Virus record (IMG/VR): IMGVR_UViG_3300044529_000018
Location: 1-52,709 of that record
Strand: one strand, 5' to 3'
DNA from: a virus
Taxonomy: Duplodnaviria; Caudoviricetes
DNA: 52,709 bases
Positions within the stretch are counted from its first letter, which is position 1, and each line of letters opens with the position of its first letter. The position numbers and the translations under genes are program-made. The notes below the pieces were generated by a model. It was given only the letters and a program-made list of their open reading frames with translations. It ran no database searches and was not told the DNA's origin. This document shows, in pieces, positions 3,549-24,552 of the stretch.

Positions 3549-3549
3549 T

Positions 3550-3989: not shown

Positions 3990-4058
3990 CTTCTGTTTGT
4001 TGTGGTTTCAGATTAGAGACTGTTGCGCATGGAGCGCGGCATTTGACCTGTTACGATT

Positions 4059-6322: not shown

Positions 6323-6323
6323 C

Positions 6324-6457
6324 TGACGGAAATCAATTCTCGTCAGTCGTCAGTGGATTTCCGTCATACCCCTATTGACGAGTGACGGTAATCCTATAAG
6401 GTTACCGTCACCGTCAGTGGGTCTGTCGGAAACGTCCAAAACCATTCCCGTCAGTGG
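6324..6457. repeat. Putative replication origin (iteron-like TGACG/CGTCA cluster)
   Basis: Nine TGACG/CGTCA copies, three CGTCAGTGG, and inverted pairs TGACGGAAATC..GATTTCCGTCA and TGACGGTAA..TTACCGTCA, immediately after the primase-helicase. Confidence 0.6.
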
Positions 6458-6627
6458 CCAAAAATAGACAAAATTTTGAGGGCTACAATACGATTAAACG
6501 CCACCCCGAAAAAGGGCTGGCCGGTCGCCCTCCTGGAATTCGCCGAAAAAAGGAATCTCTTTTTCTGGCCGGTCTGGGGATCAAGCCAATGACCGCAATG
6601 TAATTCGCAGTAGGAGCAAGCTAATTA

Positions 6628-6655
6628 TAGTTGCACAACGTCACTTATATCTACA
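6628..6655. other. dif-like (or empty attI-like) recombination site
   Basis: TAGTTGCACAA-CGTCAC-TTATATCTACA, an 11-6-11 geometry in a convergent intergenic region. Confidence 0.35.
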
Positions 6656-6683
6656 TTCAACCACAAGGCAAATGCCTTGTTTA

Positions 6684-7256
6684 TCAACGGTTTAGGTCTG
6701 ATTCAGCCGGTTTATCCTCGGTTATATCCATAACGGCGCCAGTCTCAACACCACAAGACACAACAGGTTGTGGTGTACTGACATCAATCTGATTTAGAGT
6801 GCCGATCTGGACCACGCTCCGAGGGCCGGAGTCTTTGGACCAGCCGAACACCTTATCGCAGGCCGTCGCCAGGGTGTTTACCGTTGCAGTTCGACCAAGA
6901 GCCAAGCAAGATAGCGTTTTTGGCTTGTTTGTGGCGAATAAACGCGCCTGGGCGAGCAACTCGCTCGAAAGCAGGCCCAAAACCTCTTGGCTTTGCGCCT
7001 CTACCTCGCGTGTAATTGTCGAAGCCACGGCATTTTTGACAACACCCCGAGCATTGTCTAATCCCTGTGACCATTGTCCCCGCTCAGCCATTTTGCGGAT
7101 AGCGAACTGGGAAGCGCCCGTTTCCTGTGCAATTCTGGGGGTTTTGATACCGGCGGCGAACATGGCTTGGATTGTCGCTTTGACTTCTTTGGAAATCCGA
7201 GGCCCAGGACCGCGCCGGGTTTGAGCCGCTGGGACATTTTCGGCGGTTTCAACCAT
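6684..7256 (-). CDS. HTH protein, possible terminase small subunit
   Basis: N-terminal HTH ending RGQW, helical middle and acidic tail, as typical of TerS. Confidence 0.45.
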   Translation of the reverse strand: MVETAENVPAAQTRRGPGPRISKEVKATIQAMFAAGIKTPRIAQETGASQFAIRKMAERGQWSQGLDNARGVVKNAVASTITREVEAQSQEVLGLLSSELLAQARLFATNKPKTLSCLALGRTATVNTLATACDKVFGWSKDSGPRSVVQIGTLNQIDVSTPQPVVSCGVETGAVMDITEDKPAESDLNR

Positions 7257-7412
7257 GCGCAACAGATAACCCGAGGCGGGCGCAGTGTCAAGTTCATGCC
7301 AGCAGGCACAACCCGCAAGGCGCGCGCGGCGTCGTCATCATAAGGGAAGCCGAACGTATCAAAGTGGCGGAATGCCTTTGCAATTGATTGCAAGGCAGTG
7401 TAGGCTAATCCA

Positions 7413-7568
7413 ATGAAAGAACCGAAATACCCGAAAGTGAAGTGTCACGAATGCGATCAGGAGTTCAGCCAGCGCCGGCCGTGGAAACGGTATTGCAGCC
7501 AGGCGTGCAACTGGCGAGCGTGGAATAAGCGCAACCCGAGGCAAAAGGCGAATGCAACAGGCAATTGA
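7413..7568 (+). CDS. Small zinc-finger protein (51 aa; not in the ORF track)
   Basis: MKEPKYPKVKCHECDQEF..RYCSQAC. Confidence 0.65.
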   Translation: MKEPKYPKVKCHECDQEFSQRRPWKRYCSQACNWRAWNKRNPRQKANATGN

Positions 7569-8076
7569 ATCAACCCGTTTGCCGGTGTTTGAATTTGGCG
7601 ACCGCAGGCGATGCACCTATTGCGGAGATCCGGCTACCGCGCGCGATCATGTAATCGCCGTTAGTTACCAACAACAAACGCGGACAAAAGCCTTTTCAGA
7701 GTGCGGCCCGTGGACTTGGTCCTGCACGGAGTGCAACACCACCTTGAGCAACCGCTGGTTTGATTCGTTTGACGAGCGTTGCCGATGGGTGAGCTGGCGA
7801 CTTCAAAAGCGCGTCAAACCCATATTGTGGACCGAGGCACAACTTGCCAGACTGGACTTCAAACTGCAAAATCACATCCGGCAACAGACGGCCAAGGCGA
7901 AGTGGAGCCGCTACCGGGCGGACTTCTACGAGAGCCGCGACTATTACTTGAATCTGGAAAGCCTGACTTGGGAGCTTGCAAGACGCGACACCGTCACCGA
8001 CGCGCGCAAATTCCTTGCCGGCTATTTTCGACAGACGTTGATTGAGCTTGCCGGACTTTACAAACCCGCCCGTTGA
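7552..8076 (+). CDS. HNH endonuclease-like protein
   Basis: CTYCG..RDHV..CTECN. Confidence 0.75.
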   Translation: MQQAIESTRLPVFEFGDRRRCTYCGDPATARDHVIAVSYQQQTRTKAFSECGPWTWSCTECNTTLSNRWFDSFDERCRWVSWRLQKRVKPILWTEAQLARLDFKLQNHIRQQTAKAKWSRYRADFYESRDYYLNLESLTWELARRDTVTDARKFLAGYFRQTLIELAGLYKPAR

Positions 8077-8268
8077 ATGTCCTGATTCTGTTCATGCCCA
8101 TTCTCAAGTTGAGACAATGCCAGCTCGAGGTGGGCCGGACAGATCCCGTGCGATATGTCCACGCCGGCCAGGTCTGGGAAACGCCCTATAAACGATTCTA
8201 GCGCGTCCGGCCACAAAACCCAATAAAATCAAGGCTCTGGCGAGCCTGAAAATAAATGAAATAAATGA

Positions 8269-8297
8269 TTGACGTAGCCGCTACGTCGTGCGATGAT
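8269..8297 (+). promoter_or_regulatory. Sigma70-like promoter with overlapping operator palindrome
   Basis: TTGACG-17-GATGAT with an extended TG; perfect palindrome GACGTAGC-C-GCTACGTC at 8271..8287. Confidence 0.55.
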
Positions 8298-8345
8298 GAT
8301 GTCAGTTCGAGGGGCGAAGAGCCTGACGAACAGAACAAAAACAAA

Positions 8346-8606
8346 ATGAAAAATACCGTCATCATCTACGAAATCAAAAACTGGGGCGACACCTTCCAAG
8401 CCGATGGCTACGACCAGGACGGCTGGGCAAAGAATGACCGCGTCGCGAAGCTCGCGAACATGATAATGATTCTGGACAAAGTTGACCTCGCGACGGCGAG
8501 CCGTCGGGCGAATCAATCAATCAAGGATATGGACGGCGATGTCCAAACTGCCTGCGATGTCATCCGTGCCGAACTCATCGGCCAACAAGGGAAGGCGGCC
8601 AAATGA
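8346..8606 (+). CDS. Hypothetical early protein
   Basis: ATG after an A-rich leader downstream of the promoter. Confidence 0.7.
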   Translation: MKNTVIIYEIKNWGDTFQADGYDQDGWAKNDRVAKLANMIMILDKVDLATASRRANQSIKDMDGDVQTACDVIRAELIGQQGKAAK

Positions 8607-8785
8607 ATCCCGAAGTCACAAAATATATGCGCGAGATGCAGGCTCGCTCCGCCAAGAGCCGGTGGAGCGGGCTGACCGCTGCCAAAAAAAGTGCGGCCAT
8701 GAAAAAACTCCGCGCCAAAGGCAAACAAAAAACCAAGCGCGCACTCCGGCGCTCCAACAACGCAGAGCTGACCGATCACCGCTGA
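8603..8785 (+). CDS. Small basic protein, possibly DNA-binding
   Basis: ATGA overlap; its stop lies inside attC-like site 1. Confidence 0.65.
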   Translation: MNPEVTKYMREMQARSAKSRWSGLTAAKKSAAMKKLRAKGKQKTKRALRRSNNAELTDHR

Positions 8786-8879
8786 CCATGACATCCGCCG
8801 ACACGACAATCTCAATGCCGCCCGCGACTCCCGAAACGGAGAGGCGCGGCGGTGATTCGTGTCCAGCGCTTGGTTCGGC
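8755..8879 (-). repeat. attC-like site 1
   Basis: Minus strand GCCGAAC-CAAGC-GCTGGACACGAATCACCGC ... GCGGTGATCGGTCAGC-TCTGC-GTTGTTG; stem with bulged bases. Confidence 0.85.
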
Positions 8880-9030
8880 GGCACGGTCGGATTCACGGAA
8901 ATCGTCAATGAAATCAGGGCTAAAATAAATCCCGAAAAGGTGTTGACAAATCAAAGATAAAATACGATGCTCTAATCGTTCTGAAAAACAGAACAGCCAC
9001 CGGGGGCGACCCGGAAAACAGAAACAACTG

Positions 9031-9480
9031 ATGAAAAATACAGCAAACAAAACGCCGAGCCTCGCGGCACTCCTTGAGGCAACAAACATCCCAACATCAC
9101 TCGTCCGCGCCGTCGTGCGTCAAATGGGTGGCTGGAAATCGTTCAGTGAATCCGCTCCTGACATTACACGCCACGGAATAGACGGCGGCTTCAACGGTTT
9201 CATCTACAACCGCGACACCGAAGCGTTTGCACGTCGCAATCGTGAGTCAATCGCTCAGATGGCCAGCGAGCAGGCTGCCGACTTCGGGAGCGGCGTAATC
9301 GAAATGATTCGCGGCTTTGGCTGCTTTCGGAACGGCACGAAGCCGACCGATGAGGAAATCGGATCGGCGCTGTATGCCGGACGCGATGCGAAAGACGGCC
9401 TACCGGTATTGAACGCGCTTGCGTGGTATGCCGGCGAAGAAGTCGCCCGCGCCTACTGTGACGCATTCGATCCTCAATGA
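9031..9480 (+). CDS. Hypothetical protein (cassette-borne)
   Basis: Preceded by TTGACA at 8943 and a leader hairpin. Confidence 0.8.
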   Translation: MKNTANKTPSLAALLEATNIPTSLVRAVVRQMGGWKSFSESAPDITRHGIDGGFNGFIYNRDTEAFARRNRESIAQMASEQAADFGSGVIEMIRGFGCFRNGTKPTDEEIGSALYAGRDAKDGLPVLNALAWYAGEEVARAYCDAFDPQ

Positions 9481-9481
9481 T

Positions 9482-9778
9482 ATGCCTGCGCCTGAGAAAA
9501 ATCAAAACGCGGTGAAGGACGAGGCCGATGTCGCCTCGTCCTTCCTGCACCTCCGCGTCGTGCCACGCGATAAAGCCGCCTGGGTCAAAGCCGCGAAGCG
9601 GCGGAAGAAGAAGCTGGCTGAGTGGACGACGGAGACGTTGAACCACGCTGCGCTAGTGCCGCCGAACGACCGGCTGGCCGCAACTCGAAAACCGTATGAA
9701 AAAGAAAAACCTCAAGACAGACAAACGCGCTCCAGAACTGAAACGCGGGAAGCCGGTTCGTGTCCAGCGCGTTGTTAG
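9482..9778 (+). CDS. Ribbon-helix-helix-like DNA-binding protein (cassette-borne)
   Basis: FLHLRVVPRDKAAWVKAA..LAEW beta-helix-helix pattern; C-terminus runs through attC 2. Confidence 0.55.
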   Translation: MPAPEKNQNAVKDEADVASSFLHLRVVPRDKAAWVKAAKRRKKKLAEWTTETLNHAALVPPNDRLAATRKPYEKEKPQDRQTRSRTETREAGSCPARC

Positions 9779-9780
9779 GG
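9661..9780 (-). repeat. attC-like site 2 (partly degenerate)
   Basis: GCCGAAC ... GTGTCCAGCGCGTT-GTTAGGG; the right arm resembles sites 1 and 6. Confidence 0.7.
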
Positions 9781-9977
9781 ATGCGACGACACGACTGCTG
9801 CTCGCTGTCTGTCTAAGAGTTCTGGCCGAAGCGCAAAGGGCCGTTGCTGATGGGAAATGGTGCGAGCGTGGAATGGATATCAAAATCAATCGCATCTTGT
9901 GCCCGCAATACTTTCCAATCCGCCGTTGGCGTCGTTTCAAAACAAACCCGCAAACAAGCACGCCAGAAAAATGTTGA
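9696..9977 (+). CDS. Hypothetical protein starting inside attC 2
   Basis: N-terminus (..VQRVVR) is encoded by the attC arm, as in 12895..13257. Confidence 0.5.
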   Translation: MKKKNLKTDKRAPELKRGKPVRVQRVVRDATTRLLLAVCLRVLAEAQRAVADGKWCERGMDIKINRILCPQYFPIRRWRRFKTNPQTSTPEKC

Positions 9978-10001
9978 CACAATCCGCTAAAGCCGCATAA
10001 T
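9974..10001 (+). promoter_or_regulatory. Sigma70-like promoter
   Basis: TTGACA-16-CATAAT directly upstream of the HTH gene. Confidence 0.6.
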
Positions 10002-10009
10002 ACGCAAAT

Positions 10010-10240
10010 ATGAATCTTCCCACCATACCCACCCGCAAGATTGACAGCACCCGAGCCGGCGCCATGATCCGCGCCGCCCGCACCAAGGCGGAAATCTCCC
10101 TTCGCCGGCTGGCCGTGGCGATGGGAAAATCCGCGCCGTATCTGTGCGACCTGGAACTGGGTCGGCGCAACTGGACGCCCGAGCTGTTTTCATGCGCGGA
10201 GTCCAAACTTCAGGAACTAATTGCAGACAAGCACGCATGA
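10010..10240 (+). CDS. XRE/Cro-like HTH regulator
   Basis: IRAARTKAEISLRRLAVAMGKSAPYLCDLELGRR. Confidence 0.85.
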   Translation: MNLPTIPTRKIDSTRAGAMIRAARTKAEISLRRLAVAMGKSAPYLCDLELGRRNWTPELFSCAESKLQELIADKHA

Positions 10241-10461
10241 AACCGATCAAGCCACTTTCAAACCTGATGACCCAGGAGCAGCTGGACGCCGCGCTTAATG
10301 GTCCGCTCTACGATGACCGGAACAGCATGCCTGACATTTTTGTGTCATACAGCGGCGACGAGCAGGAAAAGCGCCCTTGGACTTATCAAATATATTTCCA
10401 CGCCCAACTTTTATGGACGTGCGACCAGTACATCGAGAACCACCAATGGGGGACCAACTGA
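10237..10461 (+). CDS. Hypothetical protein
   Basis: ATGA overlap with the upstream gene. Confidence 0.6.
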   Translation: MKPIKPLSNLMTQEQLDAALNGPLYDDRNSMPDIFVSYSGDEQEKRPWTYQIYFHAQLLWTCDQYIENHQWGTN

Positions 10462-10464
10462 TTT

Positions 10465-11232
10465 ATGAAAAACGCCAACACCGAACTTTTGCCGGCCGTT
10501 CAGACGCCTCAGGACGTTGCCCGACCCGCTCCAACCTCATTGGACATTCTTGATGCCGCCGTGCGTGGTGGGATCACGTCGGAAAATGTTGCCGTCGTCA
10601 AGGAAATCATCGCCATGCGCCGGGAGGAAGTCGCCTTGGAATCGAAAGGCAAATTCAACCGCTCATTCTTTGAACTGAAGCAAGAAATCAGCGGCATGGA
10701 TTTTTATGCGGACAAAGCCGCCAAGACCGATGGCGGGGCGATTGCTTACCGCTATTGCAGCGAGAAGGAACTAGCCGCCGGATTGGAGCCGGTTTTATTC
10801 CGTCACGGCTTCGCAATGCTGTTTGGGCAGCGCGATGAAGGCGAGCGAACCGTAGCCATCATTACCCTGATTCACAAGGACGGCCACGAGGAAACCCGTG
10901 AATACTCCGTGCGATCTGGCGCAACCAACCGCATGAAGGATGCGACCGCCGCCGACACCGGGGCGACCACCAGCGCGTGGCGGCATCTGGTCATAAAAAT
11001 GTTCGGCCTAAAATCGAGGATTCGAGAGGAGGACGACGCCCGAAATCTTGGCGACGGCGGAAAGATTACAGCCGCCCAAGCCGAGGAACTGGAACGCCGC
11101 GTGCATGAAACTAACAGTAATCTGCCGGCGTTTCTGAAGCTGGCCAAGGCAAACAATTTTGCGGAAATACCCGCCATTCAATACGACATTTTGGACGCAT
11201 TGCTGCGGACAAAGGAAGCGAGGGGACGTTGA
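10465..11232 (+). CDS. erf: ERF-family single-strand annealing protein
   Basis: YRY..L..PVLFRHGF..LIHKDGHEE..GATTSAWR..EDDA pattern; adjacent to an exonuclease. Confidence 0.7.
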   Translation: MKNANTELLPAVQTPQDVARPAPTSLDILDAAVRGGITSENVAVVKEIIAMRREEVALESKGKFNRSFFELKQEISGMDFYADKAAKTDGGAIAYRYCSEKELAAGLEPVLFRHGFAMLFGQRDEGERTVAIITLIHKDGHEETREYSVRSGATNRMKDATAADTGATTSAWRHLVIKMFGLKSRIREEDDARNLGDGGKITAAQAEELERRVHETNSNLPAFLKLAKANNFAEIPAIQYDILDALLRTKEARGR

Positions 11233-11936
11233 AAATCCACGACGTTGCTCAAGGCTCCCAGGAATGGCTCAATCTCCGCGCCGGAGTGCCTACCGCCAGC
11301 GAATTCGACGCGCTTGTTTCGCCTACGTTTGAAATACGAAAAGGCGACATGCCGCGCACCTATTTGCACAAAAAGCTGGCCGAATGGTGGCAGGGAGGCC
11401 CGTTGCTGGAATTCAATAGTTTCGACATGGATCAGGGCCAGATTTTGGAAGAATCCGCAAAGCCGAACTTCACGGTCGAAACGGACATTGAGATCCGCAA
11501 CGTCGGCTTTGTCACCACTGATGACGGCAAAATCGGATGTTCCCCGGACGGTCTGATCGGTGAAAACTCCGGCGTGGAAATCAAATGTCCAAAGATTGAA
11601 ACCCACGTCGGCTATTTGCTGACCGGCGTGCTGCCCAAGCAATACGGCGCCCAGGTTCATGGCTCCATGTTTGTCACAGGCGCCAACAGCTGGCGTTTTT
11701 ATTCGTATCGCCGCCGGATGCCCAGTCTCAACCTTTTGATCGAGCGCGACGACAAGGCGCAGGAGGCTCTCAAAGAGGCGCTTGAAATGTTCCTGGCAGC
11801 ATTCGAGATTGGCCAGAAGCGGCTCTGTGAGATAAACGGAGGTCCGCCAGTTCGACGTGTTGCCTTCAAACCGGGAGACTACACTTCCGAACAACTGGCG
11901 CAGGAGCAGGATAGACCTGATATTCCGACGCCGTAA
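11229..11936 (+). CDS. YqaJ/lambda-exonuclease family protein
   Basis: QGSQEWLNLRAGVPTASEF, GCSPDGL, EIKCP and AQVHGSM motifs. Confidence 0.9.
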   Translation: MKIHDVAQGSQEWLNLRAGVPTASEFDALVSPTFEIRKGDMPRTYLHKKLAEWWQGGPLLEFNSFDMDQGQILEESAKPNFTVETDIEIRNVGFVTTDDGKIGCSPDGLIGENSGVEIKCPKIETHVGYLLTGVLPKQYGAQVHGSMFVTGANSWRFYSYRRRMPSLNLLIERDDKAQEALKEALEMFLAAFEIGQKRLCEINGGPPVRRVAFKPGDYTSEQLAQEQDRPDIPTP

Positions 11937-12053
11937 CGCAGAAGTGATCCACGGCGGGGACAACGAGCGATGAACGTAAAACAGACATTGGAATTGCCGA
12001 CAACGGTGGAGCGCAAGACGCACCCGCCGTTGTGCTCCACTGATTTGTTAGAT
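11931..12053 (-). repeat. attC-like site 3
   Basis: CCGTAAC..AGTGATCCACGGCGGG / CCCGCCGTTGTGCTCCACT..GTTAGAT. Confidence 0.85.
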
Positions 12054-12086
12054 GTCCTGCGGCCCGCAATGTGCGAGCGCGAGGAC

Positions 12087-12199
12087 ATCTAACGCCAAGC
12101 TCACGAATCCCGCCGCCGAATGAACTCAACTCCTCCATCGCCAGAAGCCAACCGCCAACCCGCGAGCGCGGCCGGATTACGTGCAGCGTCGGGTTCGGA
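12087..12199 (-). repeat. attC-like site 4
   Basis: ATCTAAC..GCTCACGAATCC / GGATTACGTGCAGC..GTTCGGA. Confidence 0.88.
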
Positions 12200-12644
12200 T
12201 GTCCGGCCCAAGACGCGAGCAAGTGACAAGAGCGTGCGTGACCGCGCTGTGACGGTGCGACTCACCAACGGGCAAATCGTGGTGGAGAATAAAACCTGCG
12301 GCATCCTGTTCAGCTTCCCCGCCGCGTGCTGGCCAGATGACAGCCTCTCCGCGCACCAGCGGATGTGGGTGAACCGCCTGACGCCTTGGTGGGACATGGA
12401 GCAACCGCAATGGTCGCCAACGTCTCAACGCCTCCGCGACTCGTGCCTCGCGGCGATCCGAAAACTTTTCCCGACAGAGCAACCGCTAAACGACCCATCG
12501 GCAACTGTGGGCCGGGACGCATCGGAAGGTGCGTCTGCTGCTCTGCCGGGAAACCAATCTAAAACCAACGGCGTGCTCCGGCATCCGAACGCCGCGCTCT
12601 GCGACCCGGCACACGGGGACGCAGGCAAACCAAAGACCTTATGA
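12120..12644 (+). CDS. Cassette protein, unknown function
   Basis: Starts in attC 4 and ends in attC 5. Confidence 0.6.
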   Translation: MNSTPPSPEANRQPASAAGLRAASGSDVRPKTRASDKSVRDRAVTVRLTNGQIVVENKTCGILFSFPAACWPDDSLSAHQRMWVNRLTPWWDMEQPQWSPTSQRLRDSCLAAIRKLFPTEQPLNDPSATVGRDASEGASAALPGNQSKTNGVLRHPNAALCDPAHGDAGKPKTL

Positions 12645-12692
12645 GCAAATCCCAAGACGCAATGCCGAGTCCGCAGCAGCAAGTGGTTAGGA
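12584..12692 (-). repeat. attC-like site 5
   Basis: TCCGAAC..GCTCTGCGACCCGGCA / TGCCGAGTCCGCAGCAGC..GTTAGGA. Confidence 0.88.
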
Positions 12693-12898
12693 GCAATGGG
12701 TGGGTAATCCTGCATCCAGACGGAAGGATGGAACTGGACTACTACCATGCGGAACTCAGCTACAACAAATACGGCGGACCTACGCTGTCAAAAGAGCAAT
12801 GGATGGAACGATACCGCCCAGACTGCACGCTTCATCGCGTCAACATCGAAATTGCTCCTAACGCCAAGCTCACAGACGGGGCTGGCACAAACGTATGA
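12641..12898 (+). CDS. Cassette protein, unknown function
   Basis: ATGA-coupled at both ends, inside attC sites. Confidence 0.7.
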   Translation: MSKSQDAMPSPQQQVVRSNGWVILHPDGRMELDYYHAELSYNKYGGPTLSKEQWMERYRPDCTLHRVNIEIAPNAKLTDGAGTNV

Positions 12899-12976
12899 AA
12901 GCAAAACGAACATCCAAATTAAAACGAGCGCGAACAGAACGGGCGAAGCCCCGTTCTGTGCAGCGCGTGGTTAGGG
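12856..12976 (-). repeat. attC-like site 6
   Basis: TCCTAAC..GCTCACAGACGGGGCT / AGCCCCGTTCTGTGCAGC..GTTAGGG. Confidence 0.9.
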
Positions 12977-13257
12977 CGAAGACTCTCGAAGAACTCGTGC
13001 TCGACGCCCATGAGAAAGGCTTCGGCGTAGAAGTGAGCCTCGAACCTGTGCTGCGCGTTGAAGTCACCCGCAACATGGAGGCGGAACTGAGCTGGCTAGT
13101 ATCCAGCGGCCTGTTCGGTGGAAGCATCGCCGAAGCGGCGAGACGCATCCTAGAAGAATGGCTGTGGAACAATAAACAGCGTATCGCGGCACTTCGCCCT
13201 AACGCTCGAACTGAGCCACCGCCGACGGGTGACTCAGGAACTCCAAAGACTCTATGA
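12895..13257 (+). CDS. Cassette protein, possible RHH-like C-terminal domain
   Basis: LVSSGLFGGSIAEAARRIL; ATGA-coupled. Confidence 0.65.
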   Translation: MKAKRTSKLKRARTERAKPRSVQRVVRAKTLEELVLDAHEKGFGVEVSLEPVLRVEVTRNMEAELSWLVSSGLFGGSIAEAARRILEEWLWNNKQRIAALRPNARTEPPPTGDSGTPKTL

Positions 13258-13304
13258 ATGAACTCAAAGCGCAATCGGCGGTTGGCTCAAGTGAGTTGTT
13301 GTGT
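13197..13304 (-). repeat. attC-like site 7
   Basis: CCCTAAC..ACTGAGCCACCGCCGA / TCGGCGGTTGGCTCAAGT..GTTGTGT. Confidence 0.9.
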
Positions 13305-13478
13305 GAGTTGGAACTGGCGCTGGACCACGCCAATAACGCCGCTGAATACTTCCGGAAGACCAACTCTCCGCGCTGGTATGGAATGCTACCGATTCTTGAG
13401 AGCCTCCGGGACATGACTAAAGAGTGCGAAATCCGTGCACACAACGCCAAGCCCACCAATCGGGCGTCTGAAACCTGA
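13254..13478 (+). CDS. Cassette protein, unknown function
   Basis: Starts in attC 7 and ends in attC 8. Confidence 0.65.
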   Translation: MNELKAQSAVGSSELLCELELALDHANNAAEYFRKTNSPRWYGMLPILESLRDMTKECEIRAHNAKPTNRASET

Positions 13479-13569
13479 ACCGTCCAACGAAGCTAAAAAC
13501 TATGAGTGAATCAACAACGGAACAAAACTGTGAGCGTAAGCCCGATTGTGGTGCGGCGCATGGTTCGGC
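13439..13569 (-). repeat. attC-like site 8
   Basis: ACACAAC..GCCCACCAATCGGGC / GCCCGATTGTGGTGCGGC..GTTCGGC. Confidence 0.88.
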
Positions 13570-13804
13570 GTCTTACGAGAAATGCCACTGTGGCGCTGAC
13601 TGCGTAAATCTTGGCGACAACCCAAACGAACCGTGCTGGGGCAGAGTGCAAGCAACCGACGTGATGGAAACGGATGATGACGACATCTGGATTCATCACT
13701 GCTCCGGCCACGAGCCAACGCAGGATATACCACCGAAACCATACAGGCCGGAGACGCCGAACGGTGAGATCAGCCACAGCCACCGTGCGAAAACTTTCGT
13801 ATGA
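13502..13804 (+). CDS. Cassette protein, Cys/His-rich
   Basis: CHCGADC..PCWG..HHCSGH. Confidence 0.65.
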   Translation: MSESTTEQNCERKPDCGAAHGSASYEKCHCGADCVNLGDNPNEPCWGRVQATDVMETDDDDIWIHHCSGHEPTQDIPPKPYRPETPNGEISHSHRAKTFV

Positions 13805-13883
13805 AACCTGCCCGAACAAACCTAAAAATGATGCAGCCAACTCCAAGGGGCAGTGGCTGTTGGTCTGCATCGAATTGTTAGAC
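13756..13883 (-). repeat. attC-like site 9
   Basis: GCCGAAC..GATCAGCCACAGCCAC / GTGGCTGTTGGTCTGCATC..GTTAGAC. Confidence 0.88.
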
Positions 13884-13888
13884 GACCT

Positions 13889-14164
13889 ATGACGAGAGAA
13901 ATCATAATACAACCAGTGCTCAACGGCTATGTGTGTGTCGTTGGATGTCAGCGCGTCGCATTCACTGACAAGCAAACGATGCTGGGGCAACTCAGCGAAT
14001 ACCTCGACAAGCCCGATGAAGTGGAACAACGCTACATCGAACGCGCCGTGAACAAAATGGGGCCAGCCGTGCCGCAACCGTGCAGGCCAACCGACTGCTG
14101 TGAGTCCAGCGCGACCCAGCCGTCCGTAGCGATGGGGCGTGTGGAACAATGCCGGCCACAATAA
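13889..14164 (+). CDS. Cassette protein, unknown function
   Basis: MTREIIIQPVLNGYVCVVGCQ; followed by a hairpin at 14172..14202. Confidence 0.7.
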   Translation: MTREIIIQPVLNGYVCVVGCQRVAFTDKQTMLGQLSEYLDKPDEVEQRYIERAVNKMGPAVPQPCRPTDCCESSATQPSVAMGRVEQCRPQ

Positions 14165-14199
14165 CACAAATGACGACCAGGCTCGCAAGGGGTCTGGTC

Positions 14200-14308
14200 G
14201 TCTAACGACGAACTCAAGCACCGGCGCGAATAACCCATGATGCCCGCCACGCCAACGACGCTTGAACTGCCAGCGACCCCGCCGGTTGCTTGCAGTGATT
14301 TGTTAAGC
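14200..14308 (-). repeat. attC-like site 10
   Basis: GTCTAAC..ACTCAAGCACCGGCG / CGCCGGTTGCTTGCAGT..GTTAAGC. Confidence 0.9.
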
Positions 14309-14316
14309 ATCAATTT

Positions 14317-14868
14317 ATGAAACAGAAACTCGATGAAGTCCGCACTCTGGCCATCAAACTGTTCGAGGCCGGCGAGACGGAAAAACGCAAACAGCCGAAG
14401 CGCAGAAAGAACAAAATGAAAATCACAGAAATCACAATCGGAAGACTCTACAACCTCGGCAGCTACGAGCACGTCCGCTACGAACTGACTGCCGAAGTGC
14501 CACAAGGCGAAAGCGCCGCAACCGCAATCATCGGCATGGAGAAAATCCTCGCCGCACTGTCCCCGAAAACCTCAACGCATAGCCGCGATGAACTCGCCCG
14601 CGAAAAGCGGCAGGTCGAAGAAATGCACCGCAAGCTGTCAGACGAAGGGCCGGACGAGTTCCGCCGATACTACGGGCACAGCTTCGTCGGCACGCCGGAA
14701 GAATACATCGGACGCTGCGAACAGTCGCACGCCGACAACGTGGCACGCCGCGAAGCGTGGGAAGCCAGGAGCGCGAAAGCCCGCAAGCTGCTCGAAGACC
14801 TCGGCGGCGCTGCAAACTTCAAAGATGCCAAACTCGATTGGGAGGATGGCGACGACTTTGATGCTTAA
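14317..14868 (+). CDS. Cassette protein, unknown function (alternative start at MKITEI)
   Basis: Its stop codon is the TAA of core GCTTAAC. Confidence 0.75.
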   Translation: MKQKLDEVRTLAIKLFEAGETEKRKQPKRRKNKMKITEITIGRLYNLGSYEHVRYELTAEVPQGESAATAIIGMEKILAALSPKTSTHSRDELAREKRQVEEMHRKLSDEGPDEFRRYYGHSFVGTPEEYIGRCEQSHADNVARREAWEARSAKARKLLEDLGGAANFKDAKLDWEDGDDFDA

Positions 14869-14984
14869 CATAAAAGCTGAGCCGCCGCCTGTGAGCGGTG
14901 GTGATGCGCAAGGAAAACTCTCAAATGAATAACGACATCCAAACGGACAGCGATAAGGCGGTTGGCTCCGGCGCTTTGTTAGGC
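14863..14984 (-). repeat. attC-like site 11
   Basis: GCTTAAC..GCTGAGCCGCCGCCT / AGGCGGTTGGCTCCGGC..GTTAGGC. Confidence 0.88.
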
Positions 14985-15009
14985 ATCAGCGACATAAAAT
15001 CTAACTAAA

Positions 15010-15282
15010 ATGAAAACCGAAACATCTAACACCGAAATGATCCGGCTGTCTGAACTCAACGCGAACCTCGCCAGCGAGCTAAATCAAAACGACTGGAACG
15101 TGCCAATCGAAGGCAGCCTCACGGCACTGCGGCGAACGCTCTCGCGACTGAATGAGCGCGTCCACTCAAGCTACGACTTCAATGCCGACCCCGACCGCAT
15201 GACGCTCGAAGTGGGTGACGCGCTAAGGTGTAACAAAATAGCTGAGCCAAGCCCGGCCAGCGATGCCCGGAAAACAGACTGA
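15010..15282 (+). CDS. Cassette protein, unknown function
   Basis: Ends in attC 12. Confidence 0.6.
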   Translation: MKTETSNTEMIRLSELNANLASELNQNDWNVPIEGSLTALRRTLSRLNERVHSSYDFNADPDRMTLEVGDALRCNKIAEPSPASDARKTD

Positions 15283-15319
15283 CGTGCGTCCGGGCTTTGG
15301 CTCCGGCGTATGGTTAGGC
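15228..15319 (-). repeat. attC-like site 12
   Basis: GTGTAAC..GCTGAGCCAAGCCCGG / CCGGGCTTTGGCTCCGGC..GTTAGGC. Confidence 0.88.
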
Positions 15320-15343
15320 GACGGTAAAAACGAAAGGACAAAT

Positions 15344-15682
15344 ATGAGTAGATGGTATATGACCGATGAAGAAAAACGCGGCTATGCTGCGCAACAGCAG
15401 CATAGCTACCAAAGCGAACATGACGGCGGGCACGACTACCAGCAGGGCTGGCGCGAAGGCGAGCGCGAGGATAGGCGCGAGCGTGAACGCCAAGAGGAGC
15501 GCCGCCAAGAGCAAGAGGCTGAAGAACGCGCCGAAGAACGGCGTCGGCATGAATCGTATATGCGCTCACAAGAGGAAGAACAGGAACAATACGAGCAAAT
15601 GAAACAGCAACCTGAACCACAGGAACAGCCGGTGGTCGAGTCGCCTAACGACCAAGCTCTGCGACTGGAGAACAACCCATGA
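15344..15682 (+). CDS. Cassette protein, E/R/Q-rich coiled coil
   Basis: AAGGA RBS before ATG 15344; ends in attC 13. Confidence 0.7.
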   Translation: MSRWYMTDEEKRGYAAQQQHSYQSEHDGGHDYQQGWREGEREDRRERERQEERRQEQEAEERAEERRRHESYMRSQEEEQEQYEQMKQQPEPQEQPVVESPNDQALRLENNP

Positions 15683-15766
15683 ACATAGACCGCGCAACAG
15701 CCATTCAAGCATCCCAAGGCCGCGCTGCGGGGCGAACCGAAGGTTCGCAGCAGCGCGTGGTTCGGT
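15643..15766 (-). repeat. attC-like site 13
   Basis: GCCTAAC..GCTCTGCGAC / GTTCGCAGCAGC..GTTCGGT. Confidence 0.82.
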
Positions 15767-15957
15767 GCTGTGCGACATGCGCAGAATGGCTCCCAAACAA
15801 GATGGAATGCAAGCACGTCCCGAATGAAGCTGCACCGCCAGAAGCGTCCTGCGGAGGATGGGTGCGGAGGCGAGAACCCAATCGCCCGTGGGACATGTGG
15901 GCGAATGAGAAAGCACCGAACGTGCCGATGAGCGAACCGCCGACCAAAAATCTATGA
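15679..15957 (+). CDS. Cassette protein, Cys-rich
   Basis: CATCAEW..C..CGGW; ATGA-coupled. Confidence 0.65.
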   Translation: MNIDRATAIQASQGRAAGRTEGSQQRVVRCCATCAEWLPNKMECKHVPNEAAPPEASCGGWVRRREPNRPWDMWANEKAPNVPMSEPPTKNL

Positions 15958-16006
15958 AAAACACTGAAGACGCCAACGGCGGTTCGCTCCATCGGGCTGG
16001 TTCTGC
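15915..16006 (-). repeat. attC-like site 14
   Basis: ACCGAAC..CGATGAGCGAACCGCCG / CGGCGGTTCGCTCCATCG..GTTCTGC. Confidence 0.9.
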
Positions 16007-16286
16007 GCCGGACATGGAACTCGAAAGCTTCAAGCGTGAACGGAATGAAGCTCTGCTCTCGCGCGACGCCATCCGCATCCGCGCAATGGTGCGGAAGTGG
16101 AATAAAATCGAAATGCCAGCCGACCCGAAAACCTTCTGGGGCGCAGTCCACAAGGCGATAACCGGAAACCTCGGCCTGCCCCGCGACTTCCGGCTCAAAT
16201 CAAAAGCGTGGCTGACGGAACACAAGCTCACCAGCTTCGACGACGGCGACCTCGATGAGGCGCAGAACGAGAAAGTTCAGGTATGA
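15954..16286 (+). CDS. Cassette protein, unknown function
   Basis: ATGA-coupled at both ends. Confidence 0.75.
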   Translation: MKNTEDANGGSLHRAGSAPDMELESFKRERNEALLSRDAIRIRAMVRKWNKIEMPADPKTFWGAVHKAITGNLGLPRDFRLKSKAWLTEHKLTSFDDGDLDEAQNEKVQV

Positions 16287-16392
16287 GCGTCAAACCAAAA
16301 TGTGAGCACGGATACACTGACCCGGACGAGTTTTGCCCAGAATGCCCGTACCCAAGTGCGCCAAGCGAATTACCTGCAACGCATGGTTCGGC
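16262..16392 (-). repeat. attC-like site 15
   Basis: GCAGAAC..GTTCAGGTA / TACCTGCAAC..GTTCGGC. Confidence 0.8.
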
Positions 16393-16591
16393 GGCATTGG
16401 ATGCGCTTCTTAAAAAATATCCGGCGAATGCCCGACGGCTGCGAGAGAAGCGAGAATACCTTGCAAACCAAATGGCGGATTGGCGAGCACGCGGCCTCGT
16501 CCAATATGGCGGAAATTCTTGGGCTAATGTGCTCATGCCGCCGAACGCTCCGCATGAGCCGCCGGCGGCGAAAAACCAAGACCATGAATAA
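16283..16591 (+). CDS. Cassette protein, unknown function
   Basis: The N-terminal CxH..CxxC is encoded within the attC loop. Confidence 0.6.
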   Translation: MSVKPKCEHGYTDPDEFCPECPYPSAPSELPATHGSAALDALLKKYPANARRLREKREYLANQMADWRARGLVQYGGNSWANVLMPPNAPHEPPAAKNQDHE

Positions 16592-16649
16592 CACTCTGAC
16601 ATCCGAACTGCCAAGCGTTCCGCCGGTTGGCTCCATGCAGTTGTTGGGC
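16540..16649 (-). repeat. attC-like site 16
   Basis: GCCGAAC..GCATGAGCCGCCGGCGG / CCGCCGGTTGGCTCCATGC..GTTGGGC. Confidence 0.9.
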
Positions 16650-17279
16650 CGCGTTTTGGTGGCGTGCGAATTTTCGGGAATAGTCCGTGACGCCTTCGCT
16701 GCTCGCGGGTGGGATGCGTGGTCGTGTGACATACTGCCAACTGACAAACCCGGCCAACACTTCCAAGGTGACGTGCGCGACATCCTGCATGAAAGCTGGG
16801 ACTTGATGATAGCTCACCCGCCATGCACCTACCTATGCAACTCTGGCGTGCGGTGGCTGACCGAAGATGGTCCAGGTCACAACGGATATATCCGACGCAC
16901 GATGATGAGAGAAGGTGCTGAATTTTTCAAGTCGCTGCTCAATGCCGACATCCCGCATATCGCAATCGAAAACCCAATCCCACACAGATATGCGCTGCAA
17001 ATCATCGGCAGGAAATACGACCAAATCATCCAACCGTGGCAGCACGGTCATGGCGAGACAAAGGCAACCTGCCTCTGGCTGAAAAATCTCCCGAAACTGA
17101 AACCGTCAAACGTCGTGGAAGGACGCGAAGGCAAAGTCTGGAAAATGCCGCCAAGCCCTGACCGATGGAAAGAGCGCAGCAGAACCTACACCGGAATAGC
17201 TGAAGCTATGGCCGACCAGTGGACTCGCGCAACGCGGCCCAACACTGTATTATACGACTCCTCCGCAACTAAAAAATGA
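16584..17279 (+). CDS. Phage DNA cytosine methyltransferase-like protein (cassette-borne)
   Basis: VLVACEFSG, WDLMIAHPPC, IAIENP, IIQPWQHGH and RSRTYTGIAEAMADQW motifs. Confidence 0.8.
   Translation: MNNTLTSELPSVPPVGSMQLLGRVLVACEFSGIVRDAFAARGWDAWSCDILPTDKPGQHFQGDVRDILHESWDLMIAHPPCTYLCNSGVRWLTEDGPGHNGYIRRTMMREGAEFFKSLLNADIPHIAIENPIPHRYALQIIGRKYDQIIQPWQHGHGETKATCLWLKNLPKLKPSNVVEGREGKVWKMPPSPDRWKERSRTYTGIAEAMADQWTRATRPNTVLYDSSATKK
17237..17258 (-). other. attI-like site closing the main array
   Basis: Minus strand GTCGTATAA-TACAGTG-TTGGGC; TAA-N7-TT spacing as in attI1; no attC hairpin follows. Confidence 0.6.
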
Positions 17280-17590
17280 TAAACCATTACAATGCAACGA
17301 TAAGGAAAGAAGCCCGCAAGCGATGGTCATTGAACGCCGTTCGCGCAAAGGCTCGCATAAAAGCCGAACGAATGGCCGCGCCGATACTGGATGAACCTCC
17401 GGGGAAAGTATTCGTCCCAAAGCGAACCCGGCCCGACCTGAAAGTGATCCTGGAACGTAAGGACGGGATGAAAGTTCAATACTCGCTGCGCCTGTTTTAC
17501 GGCAAACTGATTGGCCAGCATCTCCAAATGTCACCCAAGCAGTTTGGCCGTAAGCTAGGAGCCATATTCCAACTGTGGGCAACACCATGA
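17276..17590 (+). CDS. Hypothetical basic protein
   Basis: ATGA overlap with the upstream gene. Confidence 0.6.
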   Translation: MINHYNATIRKEARKRWSLNAVRAKARIKAERMAAPILDEPPGKVFVPKRTRPDLKVILERKDGMKVQYSLRLFYGKLIGQHLQMSPKQFGRKLGAIFQLWATP

Positions 17591-17769
17591 AAGTAACCCG
17601 CTCAGGAATAATGTTCCACCCCCAAAGGAAGCGGCCCGAATTTGACGACGAGGAATTGCATCGCCGTTCACTTGCAGAAGAAGCACGCAAAAACAACAAC
17701 AACCGTCCCGCACAAGCTGTCGCAGGACAGCCACAGCGTTCTTTGATCGAAAATCAACAAGATGACTAA
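17587..17769 (+). CDS. Hypothetical protein
   Basis: ATGA overlap with the upstream gene. Confidence 0.5.
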   Translation: MKVTRSGIMFHPQRKRPEFDDEELHRRSLAEEARKNNNNRPAQAVAGQPQRSLIENQQDD

Positions 17770-17832
17770 CCGTCATCCAACAGACAGTTGCCGCCCACTG
17801 TTTCGGGCGGCAGCTTGTGCGGGATAAATTCC

Positions 17833-18183
17833 ATGCAAACCTATGAATTCGACAATGCCAGCGCATCCTTCAAACGGCGAAACCCGCATCTATTTGGTGG
17901 CATGGCATCGGATACCGTCCTGCAACCGAATCCTGAGTATGAGCCAGTGGCAGAGGATGCGAGAGAAATTGTTGACCAAGCTCGCCGTCTTGTGCGCATT
18001 ACGAGCTTCCGCCTTCGGCTCTGTGACGAGCGAAACTTGTGGGATAAACATTTCGTCGATGCACTTGTCGAGGCTGGAATCATCTTTGATGACTCGCCGG
18101 AATTCTGTCAGATTGAAGTCAAACAGGAAGAAGTCAAAGACTGGAGGCTTGAGCGAACAGAAATAACCATTGAACCGATATGA
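17833..18183 (+). CDS. RusA-like Holliday junction resolvase
   Basis: RLCDERNL..KHFVDALVEAGIIFDDS. Confidence 0.7.
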   Translation: MQTYEFDNASASFKRRNPHLFGGMASDTVLQPNPEYEPVAEDAREIVDQARRLVRITSFRLRLCDERNLWDKHFVDALVEAGIIFDDSPEFCQIEVKQEEVKDWRLERTEITIEPI

Positions 18184-23909: not shown

Positions 23910-24542
23910 TTAACCAATGTTGTTTCTTACCCAATGGTAGCCCTTGCCAATTTTTTCTCCAATTTCACCCCTGGTCAGCATTTGACCATTGTAATCGAGC
24001 CTAACGGTATCGCGCCGGTTTCGGTTCTGAACCGTTTTAGTTGACCATTGGATATTCATAGGCCATTCATGCTTCAAGCATTCTGGACATTGACCGCATG
24101 TATAACCGAGTTCATGATCCTTCCTGTCCAGTGAAAGTAAAACACTGGTTCGAGGCCCAATGATCTGAACGATGTTTTTCGGGCTTTCGGCAATGAATTG
24201 ACATGGCTTTATTCCCCGTCCACCGTAATGCTGATAGCCACTTCGATTTGGGTTTAGACACCGATGCCGCATTGTTACCCAAGACTGAAAAGCGAGATCG
24301 TGCGTCATTCCATGCGTCCGGCAGGCGCTCCATGCCGCCGCCTGAACCTTCTTGAATTTTTCCTTTTGAAAGCAACCGCATGACGTTGTGCTTCCAAGCC
24401 GTAACGAGCTTCCGCGCGTAACTGAGACTTTTCCGCAATCGCATCGGCATTTCCATAAAAGGTTTCTCTTTGCGTCTTTTCCGGCAAACTTAATTACAAC
24501 CAGTCTGCCGAACCGTTTTCCTGTAAGTTCTTTGTTTGACAT
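23910..24542 (-). CDS. HNH-type homing endonuclease
   Basis: LTGKRFGRLVV..WKCRCDCG..HGMT..MRHRC.NP..YGGRGI..SLDRKD..NIQWST..QNRNR. Confidence 0.85.
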   Translation of the reverse strand: MSNKELTGKRFGRLVVIKFAGKDAKRNLLWKCRCDCGKVSVTRGSSLRLGSTTSCGCFQKEKFKKVQAAAWSACRTHGMTHDLAFQSWVTMRHRCLNPNRSGYQHYGGRGIKPCQFIAESPKNIVQIIGPRTSVLLSLDRKDHELGYTCGQCPECLKHEWPMNIQWSTKTVQNRNRRDTVRLDYNGQMLTRGEIGEKIGKGYHWVRNNIG

Positions 24543-24552
24543 ACTGTGAGGG

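Follow-up and report, generated by a model that had tools for sequence, protein, structure and literature searches.

Clusters of integron attachment sites have already been described in phages. In a screen of 10,705 cultured-phage genomes, Qi et al. (2023, Front Microbiol, PMC9892861) identified 17 CALINs (at least two attC sites with no integrase nearby) in virulent phages as well as temperate ones; in the accessible part of that report, complete integrons are confined to fragments of host or class 1 integrons carried by temperate phages, and IntI1 is described as recombining attC sites from virulent phages. According to Bouvier et al. (2009, PMC2727003), attC sites are 57-142 nt long and have a variable terminal structure, a G usually follows AAC, R-box pairing reaches 9-11 nt in most cassettes, and the first extrahelical base of class 1 and Vibrio sites is a conserved and essential G. 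In the literature searched, no description was found of the architecture reported below or of a phage lineage owning an integrase. Promoter-early stem-loops (PeSLs) of T4-type phages are repeated stem-loops that bound small early genes and for which modular shuffling has been proposed. PeSLs carry promoters and recombine by homology, and to our knowledge they lack AAC/GTT cores, extrahelical bases and an integrase.

The locus analysed here was found in a viral genome from peat (IMG/VR record IMGVR_UViG_3300044529_000018, positions 1-52,709; this whole stretch of 52,709 nucleotides is referred to as the window). It contains 14 attC sites within 4.7 kb, with an integrase nowhere in the 52.7 kb, and is a CALIN by definition. 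Phage CALINs have been known since 2023, and the unusual features of this one are that its genes lie on the attC bottom strand and that their start codons are within the attC loops. It shares with the CALINs of Qi et al. (PMC9892861) the clustering of attC sites without intI and the presence of methyltransferase cassettes. It differs from them, as far as the accessible part of that report describes them, in gene strand and start codon position, in belonging to a viral lineage with its own conserved integrase and attI-like site, and in having 14 cassettes in a row plus three further sites, although larger clusters may be listed in their Supplementary Table S1. The locus is very likely a CALIN of 14 cassettes with genuine attC-type sites that derives from the phage lineage's own integron and has lost intI.

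The putative phage status of the genome rests on the IMG/VR and CheckV label (viral, with an estimated completeness of 93%), on the presence of genes for replication and recombination, and on tail matches that are weak. The backbone genes in the record comprise those for a primase-helicase, an Erf protein, a RecE-like exonuclease and an HNH endonuclease as well as tail-like matches, and PHROGs and Pfam searches of the window identified no capsid, portal or terminase. The features preceding the array are the following:

9974-10001, + strand: promoter-like site TTGACA-16-CATAAT (11/12), at the head of an operon through Erf, exonuclease and array
10465-11232, + strand: backbone gene for an Erf-like single-strand annealing protein (phrog_155, E 1.1e-5)
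11229-11936, + strand: RecE-like exonuclease gene (phrog_149, E 9e-30)

The stop codon of the exonuclease gene supplies the TAA of the first TAAC box, and the array thus begins at the final codon of this gene. Both ends of the array are bridged at full identity by contigs from an independent sample (X2; 10740-12503 and 16990-17921), and no terminator-like sites are listed on the + strand within 11931-17258.

In this range, the initial annotation had described 14 imperfect palindromes of 92-131 nt. A covariance model (R1), trained on 30 intI-linked elements from other viral contigs and on none from the window, recovered all 14 on the + strand with exact ends (19.9-55.1 bits, E 6e-12 to 6e-3). 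Their number, coordinates and lengths were thereby confirmed within the range, and three further sites detected by R1 outside it bring the count for the whole window to 17. The sites are as follows:

8755-8879, + strand: attC site Ea, outside the initially described range (R1 31.1 bits)
9661-9780, + strand: attC site Eb, outside the initially described range (R1 22.7 bits, E 0.0012)
11931-12053, + strand: attC site E1 (R1 39.0 bits, E 8e-8)
12087-12199, + strand: attC site E2 (R1 41.6 bits)
12584-12692, + strand: attC site E3 (R1 45.3 bits)
12856-12976, + strand: attC site E4 (R1 55.1 bits, E 6e-12)
13197-13304, + strand: attC site E5 (R1 41.0 bits)
13439-13569, + strand: attC site E6 (R1 21.5 bits, E 0.0025)
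13756-13883, + strand: attC site E7 (R1 26.0 bits)
14200-14308, + strand: attC site E8 (R1 40.4 bits)
14863-14984, + strand: attC site E9 (R1 29.5 bits)
15228-15319, + strand: attC site E10 (R1 51.2 bits)
15643-15766, + strand: attC site E11 (R1 39.3 bits)
15915-16006, + strand: attC site E12 (R1 45.6 bits; DNA fold z -5.0)
16262-16392, + strand: attC site E13, the weakest (R1 19.9 bits, E 0.0063)
16540-16649, + strand: attC site E14 (R1 39.8 bits)
31735-31837, - strand: solitary attC-like site in a minus-strand operon (R1 35.2 bits, E 7.5e-7)

The best unrelated R1 match in the 52.7 kb scored 11 bits (E 1.2), and the opposite strand of the same sites scored at most 9.7 bits, indicating a strong strand polarity. 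The solitary site at 31735-31837 is located at the junction of ORF 31832-32134, whose stop is the TAA of TAAC, and ORF 31506-31793; all 17 sites, including this one, are co-oriented with transcription. In a Salmonella plasmid, R1 detected five of the six class 1 attC sites seen there (29.7-45.1 bits) on the intI1-coding, i.e. bottom, strand. The model also detects attC sites in bacterial chromosomal arrays, e.g. 22 matches in a 714-kb MAG contig (L128).

The attC architecture that had been proposed, with AAC and GTT boxes, spacers, a stem with an extra base and a variable loop, is supported by the R1 scores and by the alignment of the sites. AAC and GTT are invariant in all 14 sites, the full RYYYAAC heptamer being exact in only four; AACG is present in 12 sites and AACA in the other two (E9 and E10). 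The spacer is non-complementary (best 4-7 nt, mostly 5), and the loops are variable and unalignable. The 3' arm of the stem has an extra base at a distance of 3 bp from the spacer, and a second extra base lies 6 nt beyond the first, e.g. in E4 and in the class 1 control. Arm and position agree with those of known attC sites, but the base itself, on the + strand, is C in 13 of 14 sites (A in E5) instead of the G described for class 1 and Vibrio sites. The extrahelical C is likewise found in the bacterial arrays L122, L128 and L133. Of the 17 pairs predicted in A5, 13 show compensatory changes, and G-U is rare among the covarying pairs. Single-strand folding with DNA parameters, which had been suggested as a check, gave weak support: the + strand folds of three of the 14 sites beat every shuffle, and the energies were otherwise mostly no better than those of shuffles (most z between -2 and +1). 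Because of the position of the extra base and the polarity towards intI, the + (coding) strand corresponds to the attC bottom strand, which reverses the original strand labels; xxxxAAC is therefore R' (crossover AA/C) and GTTxxxx is R''.

Thirteen of the 14 array units are bracketed by an exact inverted match of 8-13 nt (GTTx...x'AAC), the exception being the cassette from E9 to E10, which has ends without a match. In 12 of 13 pairs, the GTT box of one site is exactly complementary to the AAC box of the next over 8-12 nt; the end match of the last cassette is 13 nt long. Within a site, the two boxes are complementary over just 3-6 nt, and 8 nt is reached in two of the 169 other box pairs. The GTT box of Ea has a 12-nt match at Eb's AAC box. 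Cassette 1 (12047-12093) consists almost entirely of a hairpin, with 22-nt arms formed from its own two R boxes and a 12-nt end match. Such cassette-specific end matches are also present in the bacterial contig L128 (18/18), in a class 1 integron (L121; 3/5), and in a phage relative (L115; 8/8). The methyltransferase cassettes of the window and of L102 are homologous and differ in their R boxes, each pair of which stays complementary.

Parts of the array recur in contigs from other samples. Of the 15 loose ends listed for these contigs, seven lie no more than 6 nt from an AAC or GTT core (chance expectation estimated at approximately 0.6 of 15), which is indirect evidence. Homology breakpoints occur at both AAC and GTT boxes, whereas the canonical reaction predicts AA/C breakpoints only. 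No excision joints are listed among the matching contigs from other samples, a type of data that drops rare forms.

The statement in the initial annotation that the genome lacks a tyrosine recombinase gene was corroborated: when the complete record was searched in six frames with PF00589, nothing matched at E<=0.001, and tblastn of a relative's IntI against the window gave a best E of 1.5. The window, from a record with an estimated completeness of 93%, therefore lacks the intI beside the array that characterizes a complete integron. An integron-type integrase is encoded by 27 related viral contigs, and in at least 23 of these arrays of the same type are located immediately upstream. Among the 77 elements upstream of intI (23 of 27 loci), the 3' arm is the longer one in 76, and the two arms are equal in the other. 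The integrase of one relative (L092) matches TIGR02249 over its full length with 247.2 bits, below the NCBIfam curated cut-off of 265; it scores approximately 100 bits with the Xer models (XerD and XerC, in two pieces) and is 37.5% identical to IntI1. The residues R-K-H-R-H-Y and the insert region KYP...W.W..F...DPRxG are invariant in a seven-sequence alignment including IntI1.

In the relatives, a conserved stretch of 30-40 nt separates the last AAC box from the start codon of intI. The end of the array in the window comprises the following:

16584-17279, + strand: gene of the last cassette, a DNA methyltransferase-like ORF (nt identity of 64-75% to methyltransferase genes annotated in phages)
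17231-17243, + strand: lone terminal box AACGCGGCCCAAC, exactly reverse-complementary to the 13 nt that begin with the E14 GTT (16643)
17244-17278, + strand: attI-like remnant, alignable to the stretch that 13 relatives conserve upstream of intI

The terminal box is an x'AAC box without a stem at the end of the last gene and marks the end of the last cassette. The methyltransferase-like ORF, for which a Pfam search gave no match and which has a homologous cassette in L102, starts in the E14 loop and runs beyond this box into the backbone. After the attI-like stretch, an unrelated ORF (17276-17590) is present where the relatives have intI.

The + strand of the array shows a coding signal like that of known genes, with GC at codon positions 1/2/3 of.61/.47/.62 and purine at position 1 of.59, whereas the corresponding values for minus-strand ORFs are.59/.56/.59 and.46. 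The elements do not simply separate ORFs, as had been stated, but straddle the junctions: the upstream ORF terminates at the 5' box or inside it, and the following ATG falls in the loop. The preceding gene usually ends in the attC loop or at the TAA of TAAC. In the relatives, the start codon is in the loop in 54 of 76 cases, ATGA overlaps occur in 37, and the AAC phase is biased (43:24:2). Because starts lie in the loops and the preceding stops usually lie there or at the TAA, the row appears to be read as a tightly packed operon from the promoter-like site near 9974. The suggestion that the cargo is phage-like is weakly testable, the methyltransferase alone resembling phage-annotated genes; 10 cassette ORFs gave no Pfam match and three gave no PHROG match.

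The ancestral order would have been that of the relatives, i.e. array, attI-like stretch and intI on one strand, with intI subsequently lost here, and a single point, flanked by the exonuclease gene and the attI-like sequence, would have received the cassettes. If IntI1 and VchIntIA are taken as models, the + strand of a site is expected to fold into an R box, an unpaired 5-nt spacer, an L stem with extrahelical C and T, and a variable loop, and an integron integrase would cut this hairpin between A and C of the xxxxAA/C box. The cut would excise the cassette as a circle, with its ends paired as an 8-13 bp R box, or insert the cassette at attI. Shuffling in this genome would now require IntI in trans, from a co-infecting relative or the host. 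Unlike in bacterial integrons, the genes lie on the bottom strand and hence are co-directional with intI, each start codon being placed in the loop of its own attC. At the level of the lineage, we tend to favour the view that environmental phages, probably infecting Verrucomicrobiota, own a reversed-orientation integron with bottom-strand cassettes and with starts and stops in the attC loops, so that the early operon can be reshuffled without breaking expression, and that the window represents an intI-less member keeping 14 cassettes and the attI-like site. If this is true, the integrase adds, drops and reorders genes of the early operon while expression stays intact.

The initial annotation had proposed that the host's integron integrase acts in trans; in this other history, the lineage never had an integrase, and a chromosomal IntI of the host built the array and still shuffles it. 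The lack of an integrase in the window agrees with this, as do the reported recombination of virulent-phage attC sites by IntI1 (Qi et al. 2023, PMC9892861) and the existence of bacterial IntI proteins, mostly from Verrucomicrobiota MAGs, that are 50-58% identical to the phage type and are accompanied by attC sites that are built alike and share the extrahelical C. However, in the 27 related viral contigs such arrays are directly followed by an intI of their own, and the attI-like stretch found ahead of intI in these relatives is retained in the window; loss of the lineage's own intI is therefore the simpler history, and a CALIN derived from a phage-borne integron does not require construction by a host IntI. 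Moreover, relative to attC, the bacterial cassette genes occupy the other strand (18/18 in L128), so that the phage cassettes are not just cassettes taken over from a host. We consider the host-built history improbable. It is far less probable still that the contig is a mis-binned or chimeric bacterial chromosomal integron of non-viral origin. The failure to identify capsid, portal and terminase and the very similar attC types in bacterial chromosomes would fit such an origin, but the array sits among the primase-helicase, Erf, exonuclease, HNH endonuclease and tail-like matches, the record is classed as viral and 93% complete by IMG/VR and CheckV, the X2 contigs from an independent sample span both array ends, and the gene orientation is unlike that of bacterial arrays.

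The hairpins might also act only at the RNA level, in processing or translational coupling at the junctions of a polycistronic early mRNA, without any recombination. The co-orientation of 17 of 17 sites with transcription, the loop starts, ATGA overlaps and AAC phase in the relatives, and the finding that contigs from an RNA library cover parts of the array are consistent with this idea, and an RNA role could exist alongside recombination. As the sole explanation it is highly unlikely, leaving unexplained the cassette-specific end matches of 8-13 nt, the cross-detection of class 1 attC sites together with the adjacent integron integrase in relatives, and the rarity of G-U among covarying pairs. 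Selfish hairpins of the REP, MITE or IS200/IS605 kind, spread by an enzyme other than IntI, would likewise appear as imperfect palindromes repeated at gene boundaries, but no such enzyme was found among the ORFs scanned, and integrons are matched in geometry, in polarity and in the gene that neighbours the arrays of relatives, which makes this origin extremely improbable.

Among cellular systems, sedentary chromosomal integrons (L128 and Verrucomicrobiota MAGs), whose IntI identity to the phage type was given above, resemble the phage arrays in having the array upstream of intI, the bottom strand of attC on the strand that codes for intI, and an extrahelical C. They differ in carrying the cassette genes on the other strand in L128 (all 18), in their uniform attC sites (99 nt), and in the sequence upstream of intI, which is unlike the phage type. 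The class 1 integron L121 agrees in R box, spacer and L box, in having an extra base at 3 bp from the spacer with a T 6 nt further on, and in the polarity towards intI, and its attC sites are detected by the phage model; the extra base is G rather than C, top-strand genes are transcribed from Pc away from intI, and attC follows the gene, with no start codon inside. A further viral record, Virus Rctr41k (KX853513.1; L123), encodes an IntI-like protein (35% identity, annotated as xerD) and contains at least six attC-like sites with cassette end matches of 10-11 nt. In this record, the array lies downstream of the integrase gene and has the opposite attC polarity, a layout that we take to be that of 'inverted-integrase' integrons such as those of Treponema.

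The AAC and GTT boxes of each repeat were placed by a script reading positions 11700–17500, and 14 elements of 92–131 nt were identified, all on the plus strand; the ends and lengths agree with those of the 14 palindromes described in the initial annotation. From the outside inwards, each element consists of an xxxxAAC box, a spacer that lacks complementarity and is usually 5 nt long, and then a stem and a variable loop, followed by the other stem arm, a spacer, and a GTTxxxx box. The 3' arm exceeds the 5' arm by 1–3 bases; 13 of the 14 elements have C as the first extra base, which is located 3 bp from the spacer.

Features of the window
8755–8879, plus strand: attC-type element Ea, outside the array
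9661–9780, plus strand: attC-type element Eb, outside the array
11229–11936: RecE-like exonuclease ORF
11931–17258, plus strand: array of 14 attC-type elements (E1–E14)
17244–17278: attI-like stretch, following a lone terminal AAC box (17231–17243)
17276–17590: unrelated ORF
23910–24569, minus strand: HNH endonuclease (phrog_374, E = 1.6e-45), outside the array
28586–29119 and 32112–32777, minus strand: two methyltransferase-like ORFs, outside the array
31735–31837, minus strand: solitary attC-like site (35.2 bits)

Folding energies, a check proposed in the initial annotation, were mostly not significant for the window elements; because they are weak alone, the case rests on comparison. RNAalifold predicted no pairs from a raw alignment of the 14 elements, since their loops misalign, and short-loop relatives were used instead. 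The possibility that the repeat arises from a conserved leader peptide was rejected because the GTT box occurs in all three reading frames, both in the window and in relatives (22/18/14 in the latter). Cassette length of 2 modulo 3, needed for self-closing ATGA frames, is not a family rule either (9 of 14 cassettes in the window, p = 0.017, versus 12 of 32 in relatives, p = 0.37). A 15-mer scan of viral contigs yielded 90 single matches, approximately the chance level, and real arrays were a minority (74 of the 93 loci contained no element at a threshold of 10).

The bases starting at the GTT of one element are the exact reverse complement of those ending at the AAC of the next, over 12, 9, 12, 12, 8, 11, 11, 12, 4, 10, 10, 10, and 12 nt for the 13 successive pairs. 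The two boxes within one element are complementary over 3–6 nt only, and among 169 other box pairs, complementarity of 8 nt or more occurs in only two. The final GTT box (16643) pairs over 13 nt with the sequence ending at 17243, near the 3' end of the methyltransferase gene of the last cassette (16584–17279), and no stem follows. Each gene unit therefore owns inverted ends. Such cassette-specific inverted ends are the pattern of integron arrays, as each array site there is a hybrid of adjacent cassettes; R-box pairing of 9–11 nt in most cassettes has been described (Bouvier et al. 2009, PMC2727003). The same pattern was found in a bacterial chromosomal array (L128, 18/18), a class 1 integron of a Salmonella plasmid (L121, 3/5), and two phage relatives (L115, 8/8; L117, 6/7). 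The methyltransferase cassettes of the window and of locus L102 are homologous, and their box sequences differ while complementarity is kept within each pair.

Several cassettes have individual features. Cassette 1 (156 nt) is near-empty, consisting of little more than a hairpin (12047–12093) formed by its own two R boxes, with 22-nt arms that are 82% complementary; a 40-aa ORF spans this cassette. A GC-rich hairpin (14172–14203) at the 3' end of cassette 7 terminates in the TAAC box of E8, at a junction crossed by no ORF. The loops of E7, E8, and E9 contain short leader ORFs, the stops of which lie just past the GTT box, ahead of the main ATG. The low-complexity cassette ORF at 15345–15682 has a high content of Glu, Arg, and Gln and gave short matches to unrelated contigs of other runs (loose ends at 15452 and 15484). 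Outside the array, the Ea–Eb unit (8873–9667; ~800 nt) has a 12-nt end match and two ORFs. A TTGACA-type promoter-like sequence near 8943 (8941–8975), seen by eye and absent from the promoter-scan list, would give this unit, taken as a cassette, a promoter of its own.

A covariance model (R1) was constructed from 30 aligned short-loop elements of intI-bearing loci, with the window elements excluded. The structure predicted by RNAalifold for this alignment comprises the R box and, beyond an unpaired spacer, an L stem carrying a bulged C; compensatory changes were found in 13 of the 17 predicted pairs, and G–U pairs were few. With filters off, R1, although trained on other viral contigs, recovered every one of the 14 window elements, in each case with the exact ends, at scores from 55.1 down to 19.9 bits. 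It additionally detected 8755–8879, 9661–9780, and 31735–31837 (minus strand); the next match in the window scored 11 bits, and the opposite strand of true sites scored at most 9.7 bits. On the intI1-coding strand of L121, R1 detected the class 1 attC sites of aadA1 (45.1 bits), aadA2 (43.3), cmlA1 (37.0), qacL (34.9), and dfrA12 (29.7), and missed one. It also detected attC sites in a cyanobacterial plasmid integron and in chromosomal arrays in MAGs. The solitary site at 31735–31837 belongs to an operon on the minus strand. On one side of it is a 100-aa ORF that stops at the TAA of TAAC, and on the other is a 95-aa ORF resembling a LuxR-type HTH regulator as judged by eye; the GTT box of the site has no downstream matching partner.

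Using the exonuclease encoded directly 5' of the array as a query, three related viral loci were found. One of these, L092, carries the same elements and a 317-aa tyrosine recombinase, which scored 247.2 bits over the full length of TIGR02249 (‘integron integrase’; cut-off, 265), compared with ~100 bits for Xer models, and shares 37.5% identity with IntI1. When this type of IntI is aligned with IntI1 and with IntIs of bacteria, no variation is seen at the catalytic residues (R, K, H, R, H, and Y) or in the IntI-specific KYP...W.W..F...DPRxG region. A search of viral contigs with the L092 protein yielded 27 loci (55–100% identity), 23 of which contain scanner-detected elements upstream of intI on the same strand; three of the other four have <300 nt of upstream sequence. 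Among the 77 elements upstream of intI, 76 have a longer 3' arm and one has equal arms. L092 also contains a second, generic tyrosine recombinase gene (3518–4465; PF00589 only) between the exonuclease gene and the attC sites.

No homologue of the relatives' integrase was found in the window by a six-frame PF00589 search of the record or by tblastn with a relative's IntI. A conserved stretch of 30–40 nt separates the last lone AAC box from the intI ATG in the relatives. Positions 17244–17278 of the window align with this stretch and are followed by the unrelated ORF and no intI, so the window's intI is read, from this alignment, as lost or replaced. The observation of the initial annotation, including the lack of a tyrosine recombinase in the window, is confirmed, and its interpretation is partly right; its proposal that the array is built and shuffled by the host's IntI is unlikely in that form, as relatives encode their own intI.

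By the usual definition, genes lie on the top strand, and extrahelical bases lie on the R''–L'' arm of the bottom strand (PMC2727003). Because the extra bases are on the 3' arm, the plus strand of the window is the attC bottom strand; the xxxxAAC box, initially labelled R'', is therefore R', with the canonical crossover AA|C. When L121 is turned so that intI1 is on the plus strand, its true attC sites lie upstream of intI1 with extra bases on the 3' arm, i.e. with the arm polarity of the phage family, and its resistance genes are on the opposite strand. Taking AA|C as the boundary gives 14 complete cassettes and a single insertion point between the TAA|C of the exonuclease and the attI-like stretch, whereas G|TT leaves the two ends of the region ragged.

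Codon-position composition identifies the plus strand as coding in the window and in relatives, whereas genes of bacterial arrays are on the strand opposite to the phage arrangement (L128, 18/18; L133, 5/5; L154, 5/6). Because of this difference, the phage cassettes are ‘inverted’, with every gene starting in the loop of its own attC. Relatives contributed 76 distinct elements, of which 54 contain the start of an ATG ORF that is 40 codons or longer, and the start is ATGA in 37. In 43 elements, the upstream ORF reads AAC as an in-frame codon, and in 24 as xAA|C (17 being TAA stops); the third phase occurs in only two, and seven have no qualifying upstream ORF. The presence of a promoter-like site at 9974–10001 and the absence of plus-strand terminator-like sites from the scan fit one long transcription unit.

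The window stretch is present in four peat-metagenome runs, all stored as contigs. In an independent sample (X2), both array ends are bridged at full identity; an RNA library (X4) contains seven identical contigs, four of them inside the array, for which DNA carry-over is possible. Seven of the 15 listed loose ends (8759, 8875, 12053, 13448, 13763, 13876, and 14210) lie no more than 6 nt from an AAC or GTT core, against ~0.6 expected by chance according to our estimate. A 2688-nt contig of run X3, with a depth of 23 that is roughly tenfold that of the phage in the same run, carries cassette 7 (13876–14210) at ~96% identity (13 differences) between different flanks and has only the GTTx...x'AAC part in common. 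Ea and L117 have only the spacer–stem–loop part in common. Breakpoints occur at both boxes, and shared cassettes consequently do not show whether crossover takes place at AA|C or at G|TT. Either crossover can take place at both boxes, or homologous exchange in the conserved arms also contributes to the mosaic; we regard such exchange as plausible because Erf and exonuclease genes adjoin the array. No joints are listed for the peat runs, and contigs alone are uninformative on rare excision.

The record was classed as viral and 93% complete, and it encodes a primase-helicase, Erf, the RecE-like exonuclease, the HNH endonuclease, and weak tail matches. Capsid, portal, and terminase genes were not found using PHROGs and Pfam (~30 large ORFs), phmmer against PDB (a 611-aa ORF), or PF03237 (whole record). 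The closest bacterial relatives of the phage IntI (50–58% identity) are mostly in Verrucomicrobiota MAGs. One such contig (L126, 166 kb) contains a phage-type stretch upstream of intI, with two high-scoring elements (86.8 and 61.6 bits) at 9113–10936 within the long bacterial contig. Judged from these features, the locus may be a prophage of the window's phage family and a clue to its host; a tblastx comparison of the window with 80 bacterial loci carrying IntI relatives gave no match at 1e-8.

Integrons are regarded as bacterial devices. In phages, Qi et al. (2023, PMC9892861) reported small clusters lacking an integrase and fragments captured from host integrons; they describe 17 CALINs with at least two attC sites each in cultured phages, and three complete integrons and one In0 in temperate phages; five of six phage attC sites recombined in an IntI1-dependent manner, and methyltransferase cassettes were noted. 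A phage with an integrase-less attC array is, from that report, already known. A full-text literature search returned no description of a phage lineage possessing an integrase and attI of its own, of a reversed coding strand, or of starts inside attC loops. As a group, the viral contigs identified here possess a conserved integrase, together with an attI-like site and cassette arrays (up to 14 cassettes) placed in an operon of phage genes for replication and recombination. If active, this system would provide phages with a site-specific route for swapping small accessory genes (e.g. methyltransferase genes), account for part of the mosaicism of such regions, and connect phage and bacterial cassette pools. 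Both the reversal of the coding strand and the placement of start codons in attC loops represent a natural test of the coding capacity of attC. The finding as a whole is of relevance to integron research and phage genome evolution.

Virus Rctr41k (GenBank KX853513.1) also contains, at 4680–10100, an IntI-like gene annotated as xerD (35% identity to the L092 IntI) and, downstream of it, at least six unannotated attC-like sites with cassette end matches of 10–11 nt; their attC polarity is opposite to that of the window's family.
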